Origin: a phage
Sequence record: PZ019084.1
Reading direction: 5' to 3' (one strand)
Length of the DNA stretch: 64,000 bases
Below the pieces are notes generated by a model. The model saw only the letters and a list, made by a program, of their open reading frames with translations, made no database searches and was not told the DNA's origin. Every line of letters starts with the position of its first letter. Positions within the stretch are counted from its first letter, which is position 1. A program made the translations under genes and the position numbers. Of the stretch, positions 39,890-40,911 are shown in pieces.

Positions 39890-39965
39890 TGGTCGAGGCA
39901 GTAGGGATCGAACCTACGACCTAGGACTTAGAAGGTCCTTGCTCTTCCTTCTGAGCTATGCCCCG
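39890..39965 (-). tRNA. tRNA-Arg (anticodon TCT)
   Basis: Minus strand folds as cloverleaf: acceptor CGGGGCA/TGCCTCG, anticodon loop CTTCTAA, T-arm GGTTCGATCC, CCA encoded. Confidence 0.8.
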
Positions 39966-40046
39966 TAATTGGGGTGACCGATGGGAGTCGAACCCATGAC
40001 TACGAGAATCACAATCTCGAGTTCTACCAACTGAACTACGGCCACA
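39966..40046 (-). tRNA. tRNA-His (anticodon GTG)
   Basis: Acceptor GTGGCCG/CGGTCAC, D-arm GTTCAGTTGGTAGAAC, anticodon loop TTGTGAT, T-arm GGGTTCGACTCCC, CCA encoded; no encoded G-1. The tRNA itself is approximately 39971-40046. Confidence 0.6.
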
Positions 40047-40159
40047 TTAATACCTACTCCAACAATCAAGATGTCTTCACACGAAATTAAGAGAAGAGTG
40101 ATCAGTTCAACCCCTATAATCGCGTCAAGTAGATATTAATGTGACAGTTGTCACAAATT

Positions 40160-40234
40160 TGGCGGACGTGATAGGATTCGAACCTATAACCAATCGCTTA
40201 ACAGGCGATCGCTCTGCCATTGAGCTACACATCC
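40160..40234 (-). tRNA. tRNA-Asn (anticodon GTT)
   Basis: Acceptor GGATGTG/CACGTCC, anticodon stem ATCGC/GCGAT with loop CTGTTAA, T-arm AGGTTCGAATCCT, CCA encoded. Confidence 0.7.
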
Positions 40235-40238
40235 AAAT

Positions 40239-40325
40239 TGGTGGGGAGTGATGGAGTCGAACCACCCGAGTCGCAATGACAATGGATTTACAGTCCACAC
40301 CGCTACCTCTACGGGATAACTCCCC
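40239..40325 (-). tRNA. tRNA-Tyr (anticodon GTA), long variable arm
   Basis: Acceptor GGGGAGT/ACTCCCC, anticodon loop CTGTAAA, long variable arm, T-arm GGTGGTTCGACTCCATC, CCA encoded. Confidence 0.65.
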
Positions 40326-40338
40326 TTAATTCTTAATT

Positions 40339-40413
40339 TGGTGGCCCTGGGTGGAATTGAACCACCATCTGGCGATTATGAGTCGCTTGCTTGAACCTTC
40401 CAGCTACAGGGCC
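40339..40413 (-). tRNA. tRNA with CAT anticodon (Ile, as in T4, or Met)
   Basis: Acceptor GGCCCTG/CAGGGCC, anticodon loop CTCATAA, T-arm GGTGGTTCAATTCCACC, CCA encoded; position matches T4 tRNA-Ile. Confidence 0.65.
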
Positions 40414-40414
40414 T

Positions 40415-40490
40415 TGGTGCTGATTGACGGAATCGAACCGCCGACCTTCTCATTACAAGTGAGTTGCTCTACCTACTGAGCTAAATCAGC
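40415..40490 (-). tRNA. tRNA-Thr (anticodon TGT)
   Basis: Acceptor GCTGATT/AATCAGC, D-arm GCTCAGTAGGTAGAGC, anticodon loop CTTGTAA, T-arm GGCGGTTCGATTCCGTC, CCA encoded. Confidence 0.8.
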
Positions 40491-40495
40491 AAAAC

Positions 40496-40585
40496 TGGCG
40501 GAGGCGATAGGATTTGAACCTATGAGTCGCCGGAGCGACTGCCGGTTTTCAAGACCGGTGCATTAAACCACTCTGCCACGCCTCC
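40496..40585 (-). tRNA. tRNA-Ser (anticodon TGA), long variable arm
   Basis: Acceptor GGAGGCG/CGCCTCC, anticodon stem CCGGT/ACCGG with loop CTTGAAA, long variable arm, T-arm AGGTTCAAATCCT. Confidence 0.8.
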
Positions 40586-40587
40586 AG

Positions 40588-40661
40588 TCTCCATACAAGG
40601 ATTTGAACCTTGGACCTCCTGATCCCAAATCAGGCGCTCTACCAAACTGAGCTACACGGAG
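40588..40661 (-). tRNA. tRNA-Pro (anticodon TGG), CCA not encoded
   Basis: Acceptor CTCCGTG/TATGGAG, anticodon stem CCTGA/TCAGG with loop TTTGGGA, T-arm AAGGTTCAAATCCTT. Confidence 0.75.
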
Positions 40662-40671
40662 TAAATTAAAT

Positions 40672-40745
40672 TGGAGCGGATAATGAGAATCGAACTCACA
40701 TCATCAGATTGGAAGTCTGAGGTAATGCCATTATACGATATCCGC
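40672..40745 (-). tRNA. tRNA-Gly (anticodon TCC)
   Basis: Acceptor GCGGATA/TATCCGC, anticodon stem TCAGA/TCTGA with loop CTTCCAA, T-arm GAGTTCGATTCTC, CCA encoded. Confidence 0.75.
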
Positions 40746-40750
40746 AAATT

Positions 40751-40837
40751 TGGTGCGAGAAGTGGGACTCGAACCCACAAGGAAATCATTCCGCAGCATT
40801 TTAAGTGCTGTGCCTTTACCAATTTGACCATTCTCGC
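40751..40837 (-). tRNA. tRNA-Leu (anticodon TAA), long variable arm
   Basis: Acceptor GCGAGAA/TTCTCGC, anticodon loop CTTAAAA, long variable arm, T-arm GGGTTCGAGTCCC, CCA encoded. Confidence 0.8.
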
Positions 40838-40838
40838 G

Positions 40839-40911
40839 CTGGGAATAAAGGACTTGAACCTTTGCATCCTGGAATCAAAATCCAGTGCCTTACCAACTTG
40901 GCTAATTCCCA
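40839..40911 (-). tRNA. tRNA-Gln (anticodon TTG), CCA not encoded
   Basis: Acceptor TGGGAAT/ATTCCCA, anticodon stem CTGGA/TCCAG with loop TTTTGAT, T-arm AAGGTTCAAGTCCTT. Confidence 0.75.

Follow-up and report, generated by a model that had tools for sequence, protein, structure and literature searches.

The DNA analysed here, a window of 64,000 nucleotides from a phage (sequence record PZ019084.1), belongs to a Tequatrovirus and is 99.6% identical to phage REP4. At 39890-40911, ARAGORN called precisely 11 tRNA genes, all of them on the minus strand. Read in the direction of transcription, these are tRNA-Gln (UUG; 40838..40911), which abuts tRNA-Leu (UAA; 40751..40837), then tRNA-Gly (UCC; 40672..40745), tRNA-Pro (UGG; 40587..40661), tRNA-Ser (UGA; 40496..40585), tRNA-Thr (UGU; 40415..40490), a CAU-anticodon tRNA (40339..40413), tRNA-Tyr (GUA; 40239..40325), tRNA-Asn (GUU; 40160..40234), a gap, tRNA-His (GUG; 39970..40045) and tRNA-Arg (UCU; 39890..39965). 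The gene count, order and coordinates given by an earlier sequence-only reading of this DNA are confirmed by this analysis, as are its Tyr, Asn and His calls, which ARAGORN accepts as cloverleaves. The Rfam tRNA model (RF00005) matched 10 of the 11 genes at 59-74 bits (67.3 bits for tRNA-Gln). The exception was the class II tRNA-Tyr, which has a long variable arm and for which the Rfam table lists only a sub-threshold clan match (tRNA-Sec, 34.4 bits); this gene is annotated as tRNA-Tyr in phage wV7 and other close relatives. The tRNA calls are far beyond chance. CCA is not encoded by the Gln and Pro genes, while the 76-nt tRNA-His gene encodes it and has C73. On its anticodon alone, ARAGORN labelled the CAU-anticodon gene Met. 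The E. coli gene most similar to it (81.6% identity), however, is annotated as tRNA-Ile, and the two agree fully in the 5' strand of the acceptor stem and in the anticodon arm; this supports the earlier assignment of the gene to Ile and places it in the Ile2 (lysidine) type.

T4 has eight tRNAs, to which Tyr, Asn and His are indeed additional according to the T4 map. The earlier reading put ORFs and a homing endonuclease at their place in T4; a homing endonuclease gene, segB, does sit there, between Ile and Arg, but it is the only gene at that site, the T4 trna.2-4 ORFs being located upstream of Gln. Many close relatives are annotated with this set of 11 tRNA genes, phage wV7 among them, and the tRNA names agree in most of the top matches. 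The cited sections of a 2008 study (Brok-Volchanskaya et al. 2008; PMC2330249) describe T2L, RB1 and RB3 as likewise lacking segB and carrying extra tRNA genes at its place, and name those of T2L as tRNA-Tyr and tRNA-Asn. They further report that SegB cuts preferentially inside tRNA-Asn, that its recognition consensus is GGTTCRANTCC ... CCAR, and that segB homing excludes about 1250 bp of T2L DNA (PMC2330249). The 3' part of the window's tRNA-Asn reads GGTTCGAATCC...CCAA, supplying both elements of this consensus. Moreover, no segB-sized ORF was found in the cluster in the ORF list, and the extra tRNAs lie between tRNA-Thr and rnaD. The window's CAT tRNA is a different gene from T4 tRNA-Ile, with a different anticodon stem and T arm, and its tRNA-Arg differs from that of T4 outside the anticodon loop and T loop. 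By the same sections, T2L too has a Met/CAT tRNA and an Arg isoacceptor unlike those of T4, and a tRNA-Asn with the SegB target; unlike the window, its tRNA region holds two ORFs (PMC2330249). These sections mention neither tRNA-His nor a spacer RNA, and the likeness to RB1 and RB3 is one of textual description rather than gene for gene. The eleven genes are thus an ordinary, already described T2-type cluster of T-even phages and not peculiar to this phage. Since T2L, RB1 and RB3 are free of segB, the cluster is shared, and the preferred SegB site lies in tRNA-Asn, the T4 arrangement is most simply the derived state: T4 would lack Tyr, Asn and His because segB has taken up that segment.

Conversely, Tyr, Asn and His could be a lineage-specific gain, matching codon usage or replenishing nuclease-cut tRNAs, rather than part of an ancestral set lost by T4. 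Tyr and Asn make up 4.5% and 6.2% of the codons in the window's ORFs, fractions above those of E. coli, with 75-78% of these codons being NAU, and colicin E5 cuts four queuosine-family tRNAs, among them those for Tyr, His and Asn. In T5, a phage tRNA-Tyr counters PtuAB, the effector of retron-Eco7 (PMC11555353). However, the arrangement is common to many Tequatrovirus genomes and to T2L, RB1 and RB3, and the segB homing data directly account for its lack in T4. His, in turn, makes up only 1.7% of the window's codons, a fraction below the host's, and the anticodon loop of tRNA-His is the same as in E. coli and therefore no resistant variant; the Tyr and Asn anticodon loops presumably match the host's as well. 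We regard a lineage-specific gain as possible, though on the unlikely side. The two accounts are in any case compatible, because why the genes are retained and why T4 lacks them are separate questions.

On the minus strand, tRNA-Arg is followed by an ORF of 116 aa (39521..39871; PHROG 3355, unknown function, E=1e-52), which is annotated in wV7 as similar to RB69ORF150c; T4 has no ORF at that place. Homologues of T4 rnaD (species 2 RNA; 39406..39521) and rnaC (species 1 RNA; 39260..39398) come next, with 88% and 98.6% identity, respectively, to the T4 sequences by blastn. After rnaC, an intrinsic-terminator-like hairpin of 10 bp, including 8 G-C pairs, precedes a T run (39186..39209) and likely marks the end of the tRNA/small-RNA transcription unit. 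Neither a sigma-70-like minus-strand promoter nor a terminator-like site was found inside the tRNA cluster or the gap, which lies between tRNA genes and on their strand.

The gap between tRNA-Asn and tRNA-His spans 40046-40159 (114 nt). The sequence-only reading had correctly placed a spacer here but gave it as 40047-40159 (113 nt), omitting position -1 of tRNA-His. Consistent with its statement that the spacer holds no tRNA, none was found in 40046-40159 by ARAGORN or by Rfam searches of both strands at E<=1. The palindrome gtgacagttgtcac is present at 40141-40154 as reported, and its full extent is the 16-bp palindrome TGTGACAGTTGTCACA (40140..40155, minus strand). As RNA, it is predicted to form a 6-bp hairpin with a 4-nt loop, located 5' of a conserved core described below; because A40140 belongs both to the palindrome and to the last pair of the core's terminal helix P1, the hairpin and that pair are mutually exclusive. 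Of perfect palindromes whose arms measure 7 bp and whose loop is 0-4 nt, the window contains 52, compared with 36.6 ± 7.7 in Markov simulations. Moreover, the palindrome is confined to Tequatrovirus, and in one compared sequence (L047) its two central bases are inverted. Being within chance and not kept outside Tequatrovirus, it was rejected as a significant feature and proved to be the least informative portion of the spacer.

A DNA-level role for the palindrome, as a CRP-like protein-binding site that would make the spacer regulatory or a roadblock, is highly improbable. TGTGA-N6-TCACA occurs exactly at 40140-40155 and matches the E. coli CRP consensus in each half-site. Both pentamers are perfect, the spacing is 6 bp, and the window has no other such site even with one mismatch. 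However, chance alone would yield 2.17 sites at the one-mismatch level, many perfect palindromes with 7-bp arms exist in the window, and no minus-strand promoter lies nearby. The left arm is also missing in all other genera while the neighbouring RNA core is kept, and the arms pair as an RNA hairpin in the transcribed strand. Among the earlier guesses about the spacer, a protein-binding site is therefore disfavoured and a processing site comes closest, while in place of the suggested gene remnant there is a conserved structured RNA.

This RNA core occupies about 95 nt (40046..40140, minus strand) and forms a three-way junction, as supported by its fold z-score, the RNAalifold consensus, a covariance model and covariation. 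In the predicted fold, the 14-bp terminal helix P1 pairs 40127-40140 with 40046-40059, P2 pairs 40120-40125 with 40079-40084, and the P2a hairpin pairs 40111-40116 with 40088-40093. The 4-bp P3 (40072-40075 with 40061-40064) closes a 7-nt loop, UCUUGAU (40065-40071), for which the consensus across relatives is UCWUGAU. Relative to shuffled sequences, the fold z-score is -4.36 for the whole gap and -3.56 for the core. The covariance model, R1, scored 119.4 bits on the minus strand of the window and 19.7 bits on the plus strand; across relatives, the tRNA-sense strand scored 82-120 bits and the antisense strand about 20 bits. Several pairs are mainly G-U in the alignment consensus, so that only the tRNA-sense strand fits. 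With Rfam 15 (cmscan of 39000-42000, E<=1), no family matched within 40046-40159, tRNA, YrlA and hammerhead included, and R1 found no second copy of the core in the window or in T4.

Alignment of the spacer to related phages, a check put forward with the original reading, showed that the core is kept, the palindrome is not, and the flanks have diverged. Across a set of about 16 distinct sequences from related phages, which is of modest diversity, 94.8% of the alignment cells at paired positions remained paired, compared with 34-52% in slid controls, and 14 pairs showed compensatory changes on both sides, compared with 2-5. None of 500 shuffles reached the observed covariation values; shuffle controls may overstate covariation, and the slid controls concur. 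The gap is a conserved structured RNA, with folding and conservation beyond chance. These data also argue against a functionless, decaying relic of a tRNA gene, ORF or mobile element that is kept by recent descent. tRNA clusters do often gain and lose genes, as seen in the deletion of tRNA-His in L047, the insertions in PG7 and Cronus, and segB in T4, and one record annotates a hypothetical protein across the element. Yet the 14 compensated pairs and the extent of pairing are maintained across genera whose flanks have diverged, no tRNA model matches at E<=1, the sense strand has stop codons, and the element has been transferred into Vequintavirinae with its structure kept. A decaying relic is accordingly very hard to credit.

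The core is present in 356 phage records, spread over seven or more genera of Straboviridae and some Vequintavirinae phages and including many E. coli, Klebsiella and Enterobacter phages, and it directly adjoins a tRNA-His gene in hundreds of T4-like phages. Its identity to the window is 78-89% in Karamvirus, Jiaodavirus, Gelderlandvirus and Vequintavirinae phages, where the flanks differ, and it is more diverged in Roskildevirus. None of 60 records sampled annotates the core as an RNA. The literature searched, with literal sequences included, did not describe the element; an older account may exist in Moen, Seidman and McClain 1978, reportedly a catalogue of T-even tRNA-like molecules. Nor was a bacterial origin found: a 25-nt degenerate pattern for the P3/P1 region gave 65 matches in 185,579 species genomes, none of which was confirmed by the model. 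The RNA also lies between other pairs of tRNAs (Gly and Gln in Vequintavirinae, Lys and Asn in contig L087, and Asn and Arg in L047, where tRNA-His is deleted) and is an independent module. Only P1, a UGAAG junction and P3 are universal, while P2a has been swapped wholesale in some lineages: Proteus phages and some Klebsiella-like ones have a type B, and Cronus and CBH8 have still other versions. By eye, the P2a and P3 loops could pair as AUCA/UGAU in type A and as UCAUGA/UCAUGA in type B; a kissing interaction is not claimed, as the registers differ between the types and CBH8 lacks the complementarity. In Enterobacter phage CIP9, the P1 hairpin alone is kept beside tRNA-His.

Based on these findings, we propose that the cluster is a T2-type operon, the corresponding segment of which was taken by segB in T4, and that the gap encodes a small structured RNA released together with the tRNAs, an account that we consider probable. 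The core's transcription, cleavage and stability are deduced from its position and from analogous systems, by which it is most likely a small RNA excised together with the flanking tRNAs. The gap would be transcribed within a polycistronic minus-strand tRNA precursor, in which the core would fold into the three-way junction of P1, P2 leading to P2a, and P3; in Tequatrovirus, the palindrome would add a 5' hairpin. Since the core lies between two tRNAs and P1 ends at position -1, it would be freed by the tRNA-maturing enzymes: its 3' end would arise where RNase P cuts at the 5' end of tRNA-His, and its 5' end through 3' processing of the upstream tRNA. The freed RNA may then persist as a stable small RNA, as do RNA C and RNA D of T4 and RNAIII of T5. 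The sequence of the internal loops is kept while the helices compensate, which suggests that the RNA recognises a partner protein or partner RNA, on which it might act in trans.

The boundary with tRNA-His invites another interpretation. U40046, which is position -1 of this tRNA, pairs with A40140 as the last pair of P1, and P1 ends exactly at -1 (...AU|GUGG) in every Straboviridae case with a tRNA-His. The window's gene combines U(-1) with C73, whereas alignment shows G(-1) in E. coli hisR. Bacterial tRNA-His is exceptional in having an 8-bp acceptor stem, generated via unusual RNase P cleavage, with leader positions -2 and -1 in contact with the RNase P RNA (PMC11143913). The core could accordingly be a cis-acting leader of tRNA-His, in which P1 pairs up to U(-1), stacks on the acceptor stem and steers cleavage by RNase P or RNase III, the internal domains being secondary. 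Possible variants are that it leaves an extra 5' nucleotide on a tRNA-His lacking G(-1), or that it insulates the neighbouring tRNAs from misfolding. The CIP9 remnant, a P1 hairpin of 13 bp that lies between tRNA-Gln and tRNA-His and contains compensated pairs, suggests that the helix, acting in cis, may be more important than the internal domains. T5 has independently arrived at the same arrangement, with a helix extending to A:U(-1) and an annotated tRNA-His of 78 nt that begins at U(-1). However, the element is also found upstream of Gln (by 11 nt), Asn (2-3 nt) and Arg (10 nt), and its internal and P3 loop sequences are conserved across genera, which a mere leader helix would not need. A continuous 14-bp helix, moreover, offers RNase P no obvious cue to cut at -2/-1. 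We consider a purely cis-acting leader unlikely, and prefer the excised small RNA. 

More speculatively, and with a lower probability still, large lytic phages of two unrelated families, the Straboviridae and the T5 group, may pair a tRNA-His lacking the near-universally encoded G(-1) with a dedicated structured leader. Its helix would replace the G(-1):C73 pair so that RNase P leaves an extra 5' nucleotide, or it would yield a purposely non-canonical tRNA-His able to escape or decoy a host nuclease; the excised leader might additionally act in trans. If so, a leader helix pairing U(-1) would be a phage-specific route to tRNA-His identity. As G(-1) is the main identity element for HisRS, how a phage tRNA-His without it is matured and charged, and what the leader helix contributes, is a concrete question that is cheap to address.

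The tRNA genes themselves bring nothing new, as they form a T2-type cluster and segB homing already explains the difference from T4. The RNA in the gap is of wider interest. A 2010 review of post-transcriptional control in T4 stated that this phage had no characterised trans-acting small RNA, and that the genomes of its relatives might supply candidates (PMC3014915). The core RNA, covarying, about 95 nt long, found in 356 phage records and without an Rfam match, is such a candidate. It suggests that large phage tRNA arrays harbour a reservoir of small structured RNAs in the gaps between their tRNAs, a possibility at which the annotation of T5 also hints.

The core is reminiscent of RNAIII of T5 (rnaIII, NC_005859), an RNA of 106 nt annotated as a 'stable RNA with unknown functions'. 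Both are about 100 nt long and lie directly 5' of tRNA-His in a phage tRNA cluster, and tRNA-His has U rather than G at -1 in T5 as well. The terminal helix of RNAIII comprises 12 bp inside the annotated RNA; counted together with four upstream nucleotides and U(-1), it reaches 15 bp and has A:U(-1) as its last pair. Like the core, RNAIII has a multibranch interior and a small 4-bp hairpin beside the 3' strand of the closing helix; unlike the core, it has a four-way rather than a three-way junction and belongs to a different phage family, Demerecviridae. R1 gave an insignificant score on the exact RNAIII interval (9.0 bits, E = 4.4), and the core shows no detectable similarity to RNAIII in sequence or by the model. 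The RNAIII homologues of the T5 group are all at least 95% identical, too alike for a family model or a covariation test of the RNAIII structure.

Within the T-even tRNA operon, species 1 RNA (RNA C) and species 2 RNA (RNA D) of T4 are small non-tRNA RNAs as well; these two are co-transcribed with the tRNAs. They follow tRNA-Arg at the operon's 3' end, whereas the window's core lies between tRNA genes, and RNA C has a tRNA-like T arm (GGTTCGAATCC), which the spacer RNA lacks. Local alignment scores of the core with rnaC and rnaD (19-20) were lower than the shuffle means (21-23), R1 had no match to the T4 rnaC/rnaD locus, and homology to these RNAs was rejected. In biogenesis, the core would follow the logic of RNAs whose ends are set by flanking tRNAs acting as processing signals. 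In bacteria, the 3' external spacer of glyW-cysT-leuZ, freed from a tRNA precursor, acts as a sponge for sRNAs, and in mitochondria the tRNA punctuation of transcripts sets the ends of non-tRNA RNAs. Those cases involve short, largely unstructured spacers, or mRNAs and rRNAs, whereas the phage core is a compact, covarying three-way junction.

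On the minus strand, ARAGORN called eleven tRNA genes between 39890 and 40911, including Tyr, Asn and His as the sequence-only reading had proposed, in the transcript order Gln, Leu, Gly, Pro, Ser, Thr, a CAT-anticodon tRNA, Tyr, Asn, a 114-nt gap (40046-40159), His and Arg. Ten of the eleven also match the Rfam tRNA model, with scores of 59-74 bits. The exception is Tyr, whose gene encodes a class II tRNA with an extended variable arm; it gave only a sub-threshold clan match and is annotated as tRNA-Tyr in close relatives. The CAT-anticodon tRNA is of the Ile2 type: among E. 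coli tRNAs it is closest to one annotated tRNA-Ile, whose anticodon arm is identical. Its earlier assignment as the Ile of the T4 order thus holds for the type but not for the gene, which differs from T4 tRNA-Ile; tRNA-Arg is also unlike its T4 namesake. The tRNA-Gln (40838-40911) and tRNA-Pro (40587-40661) genes lack an encoded CCA and lie 0 and 1 nt from the next tRNA, an arrangement that fits the Gln-Leu and Pro-Ser dimeric precursors described for T4.

The region shares 99.6% identity with Escherichia phage REP4 and 98-99% with many other Tequatrovirus members (wV7, slur phages, G50 and others); most top matches carry the same tRNA names, and the same eleven genes are annotated in wV7. T4 has the order Gln-Leu-Gly-Pro-Ser-Thr-Ile, segB, Arg, rnaD, rnaC. 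Because the homing endonuclease gene segB lies between Ile and Arg on that map, Tyr, Asn and His are additional to the T4 set and occupy the place of segB, where the sequence-only reading had put a homing endonuclease. T2L, RB1 and RB3 are devoid of segB and have additional tRNA genes there, with tRNA-Tyr and tRNA-Asn named in a 2008 study (PMC2330249); the preferred 27-bp site of SegB lies within tRNA-Asn, and during mixed infection the homing of segB into the cluster of T2L excludes ~1250 bp (PMC2330249). Both SegB consensus elements, GGTTCGAATCC and CCAA, are present in tRNA-Asn of the window. A tRNA cluster of this type is already known. In T4, rnaC and rnaD adjoin tRNA-Arg, whereas here a 116-aa ORF (PHROG 3355, unknown function; 39521-39871, minus strand) lies between tRNA-Arg and the rnaD homologue. 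This ORF, which has no T4 counterpart at that place and overlaps the beginning of the rnaD homologue with its stop codon, may be one of the T2L 'trna' ORFs. The rnaD homologue (39406-39521, minus strand; 88% identity to T4 rnaD) is far more diverged than the rnaC homologue (39260-39398, minus strand; 98.6% identity to T4 rnaC), as a 2025 study likewise reported for phage BW1 (PMC12685909). A terminator-like hairpin (39186-39209) is located downstream of the rnaC homologue.

Counted over 75 long ORFs from the window, codons for Tyr, Asn and His make up 4.5%, 6.2% and 1.7%, respectively, with NAU at 75-78%. Compared with E. coli shares of ~2.9%, ~3.9% and ~2.3%, these values would make an extra supply sensible in the case of Tyr and Asn, though not of His. 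All three tRNAs have G34 (queuosine family); the His anticodon loop is identical to that of the host, and the Tyr and Asn loops are presumably so as well. Replenishing nuclease-cut tRNAs is a documented phage strategy, and T5 tRNA-Tyr counters retron-Eco7 (PMC11555353). By analogy, replenishment after cutting by a host nuclease may apply to this phage.

Neither ARAGORN nor Rfam (E ≤ 1) detected anything in the gap, consistent with the earlier statement that it contains no tRNA. The fold of the whole gap has z = -4.36, and BLAST retrieved 356-360 phage records, ~200 from Tequatrovirus at at least 95% identity and ~160 from other groups at 78-89%. The latter comprise Klebsiella phages (Jiaodavirus, e.g., KLB8), Enterobacter/Cronobacter phages (Karamvirus, e.g., PG7), one Proteus Gelderlandvirus and four Vequintavirinae-like records (A5-4, A7_1); Erwinia phage Cronus (Roskildevirus) has a more distant homologue. 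Alignment to these relatives, which the sequence-only reading had recommended, indicated that the conserved portion is the ~95 nt adjoining tRNA-His (40046-40140) and not the palindrome. The RNAalifold consensus of this core, on the minus strand, is a three-way junction composed of a 14-bp terminal helix, P1 (40127-40140 with 40046-40059), P2 (40120-40125 with 40079-40084), the P2a hairpin (40111-40116 with 40088-40093) and P3 with loop UCUUGAU (40072-40075 with 40061-40064).

In a set of 16 distinct sequences, standard pairs occupied 94.8% of cells, compared with 34-52% when partners were slid by 1-3 columns, and both sides had changed in 14 of 28 pairs, compared with 2-5 in the slid controls. 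In 500 shuffles, the real values for pairing, compensation and covariation score were never reached, and a 15-sequence set gave an agreeing result. The many G-U pairs are compatible with the tRNA-sense strand only. Covariance model R1, derived from nine sequences, scored 82-120 bits on that strand and ~20 bits on the opposite one, with a single copy per locus and no copy elsewhere in the window or at the T4 locus. A selected RNA structure on the tRNA-sense strand is therefore well supported, and the earlier suggestion that the spacer is the relic of a lost gene is unlikely given this conserved, covarying structure. Scanning metagenomes with a degenerate pattern gave 69 matches, 14 of them model-confirmed and including several new variants; the same scan of 185,579 species genomes gave 65 matches, none model-confirmed. 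Serratia phage CBH8 (Winklervirus) has a divergent full-length copy (51.9 bits), and Enterobacter phage CIP9 (Kanagawavirus; L160 367-403) has a reduced form between tRNA-Gln and tRNA-His, in which P1 alone is left, as a hairpin of 13 bp capped by a 4-nt loop, and ~66 internal nt are absent. A weak R1 match (28.9 bits, GC 0.23, outer helix only) on a giant-virus metagenome contig (L008/L040 2810-2883) is probably spurious.

P1 varies freely with compensation; the UGAAG junction and the loop of P3 (UCAUGAU or UCUUGAU) are conserved throughout. P2a comes in interchangeable versions: Tequatrovirus, Karamvirus, most Jiaodavirus and A5-4 carry type A, GGGGUUGAACUGAUCACUCUUCUCU; the Proteus phage and some Klebsiella-like contigs carry type B, GGCAGAAGUCAUGAACCUGCU; and Cronus and CBH8 have further forms. 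The type A loop sequence is much better conserved than P1, which suggests that it makes a tertiary contact or is recognised by some partner; by eye, a P2a-P3 loop-loop contact could form in types A and B and not in CBH8, and we make no claim for it. The commonest setting is tRNA-Gln (tRNA-Asn in Tequatrovirus), the RNA, then tRNA-His, with P1 starting one or two nt past the upstream CCA, or past an extra hairpin in Tequatrovirus, and ending at nucleotide -1 of tRNA-His. In other settings the RNA is likewise always flanked by two tRNA genes: Gly and Gln in Vequintavirinae, Lys and Asn in contig L087, and, where tRNA-His is deleted in a Tequatrovirus-like contig (L047), it precedes tRNA-Arg. The RNA of A5-4 (L005 1035-1135) and A7_1 is 87% identical to the Tequatrovirus core in an unrelated subfamily, implying that the element was transferred horizontally together with part of its helix. 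In PG7 (L003 1316-1430), the Proteus phage (L018 1379-1496) and Cronus (L006 1326-1545), an extra 110-220 nt separates the upstream tRNA from the element, and the motif UGUCACAU, which they share with Tequatrovirus, lies directly 5' of P1.

The palindrome was confirmed at the coordinates given in the sequence-only reading; its full form, TGTGACAGTTGTCACA, spans 40140-40155 and lies 5' of the core in the RNA. On its own it is unremarkable: the window contains 52 perfect palindromes with 7-bp arms and 0-4-nt loops, compared with 36.6 ± 7.7 in Markov simulations. It matches TGTGA-N6-TCACA exactly, with both CRP consensus half-sites, and is the sole such site in the window; yet no promoter is nearby on the transcribed strand and the arms pair as a 6-bp RNA hairpin, so a CRP-type site has low probability. 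Because the left arm was not found in homologous spacers of other genera, a protein-binding site in the DNA, as once suggested, is unlikely to explain the spacer. In the metagenomic contig L047, the two central bases of the palindrome are inverted and the arms are kept.

The tRNA-His gene (39970-40045, minus strand) has UUAAU immediately before GUGGCCG and ends in CGGUCAC-C-CCA, that is, U(-1) and C73; in E. coli hisR, position -1 is G. AU before GUG is common to all T4-like tRNA-His genes aligned, and U(-1) with C73 retained was seen at loci L003, L004, L006, L018, L021, L159, L160 and L161. G(-1) is the major identity element for HisRS. Bacteria normally encode it and retain it through an unusual RNase P cleavage giving an 8-bp acceptor stem (PMC11143913). 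In the precursor, U(-1) closes P1 as its last pair, A40140:U40046, and in each U(-1) case, T5 included, it pairs with an A in the 5' strand of the upstream helix. Since A40140 also closes the palindrome hairpin in Tequatrovirus, the two pairings are mutually exclusive. The association of the RNA with a tRNA-His that lacks G(-1) is open to testing and bears on how such tRNAs are matured and charged by HisRS.

Based on these data, we consider it fairly probable that the spacer RNA is a small RNA excised together with its flanking tRNAs; its fold, strand, conservation and position are established, and we infer its expression, excision, stability and action in trans. It would be co-transcribed with the tRNAs; no promoter (on the transcribed strand) or terminator was found inside the cluster. 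RNase P cutting at tRNA-His would create its 3' end and 3' processing of the upstream tRNA its 5' end, stability would come from both ends being locked in a long helix, with an added 5' hairpin in Tequatrovirus, and the conserved loops would act on a partner. In the main rival reading, P1 would act in cis as the leader of tRNA-His and govern cleavage by RNase P or RNase III; the exact fit of P1 to -1, the hairpin-only form of CIP9 and the T5 parallel all speak for it. It is rather unlikely in our judgment, as the element also precedes other tRNAs and its internal loops are conserved. Excision as a small RNA and a leader function are compatible.

The spacer RNA has no Rfam family and, among 60 records sampled, no RNA annotation, being unannotated save for one 'hypothetical protein'. 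A literature search that included literal sequence strings, with the older T-even and T5 RNA catalogues outside its coverage, returned no description; as far as could be found, the RNA is undescribed. Other such RNAs may exist: in KLB8 (L021), the His-Ser (1672-1767) and Ser-Ile (1853-1918) gaps adopt closed multibranch folds that include a terminal helix (z = -4.0 and -4.2) and are not matched by R1. Several small structured RNAs that lack annotation may lie within phage tRNA arrays, as the T5 annotation suggests. T4 RNA C and RNA D, two small RNAs to which no role has yet been assigned (PMC3014915; PMC12685909), are a further precedent from the same operon and are unrelated in sequence to the spacer RNA. 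The T5 tRNA region (NC_005859) is annotated with several 'stable RNAs with unknown functions' (RNAI, III, IV, 1, 2, 2H, 3 and X), of which the 106-nt RNAIII lies directly 5' of tRNA-His (annotated 78 nt, first bases U-GUGGCUA). RNAIII folds into a 12-bp terminal helix with a multibranch interior and a 4-bp hairpin by the 3' strand of the helix; with four upstream nt and U(-1) the helix reaches 15 bp, its last pair being A:U(-1). Homology is not shown, R1 scoring 9 bits on the RNAIII interval, and the T5-group copies, all at least 95% identical, give no scope for a covariation test. Nonetheless, this fold and place mean that the spacer RNA and RNAIII agree in position, size, architecture and U(-1) pairing. 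The spacer RNA is a new family of a known kind, the small RNAs other than tRNAs that phage tRNA operons encode.
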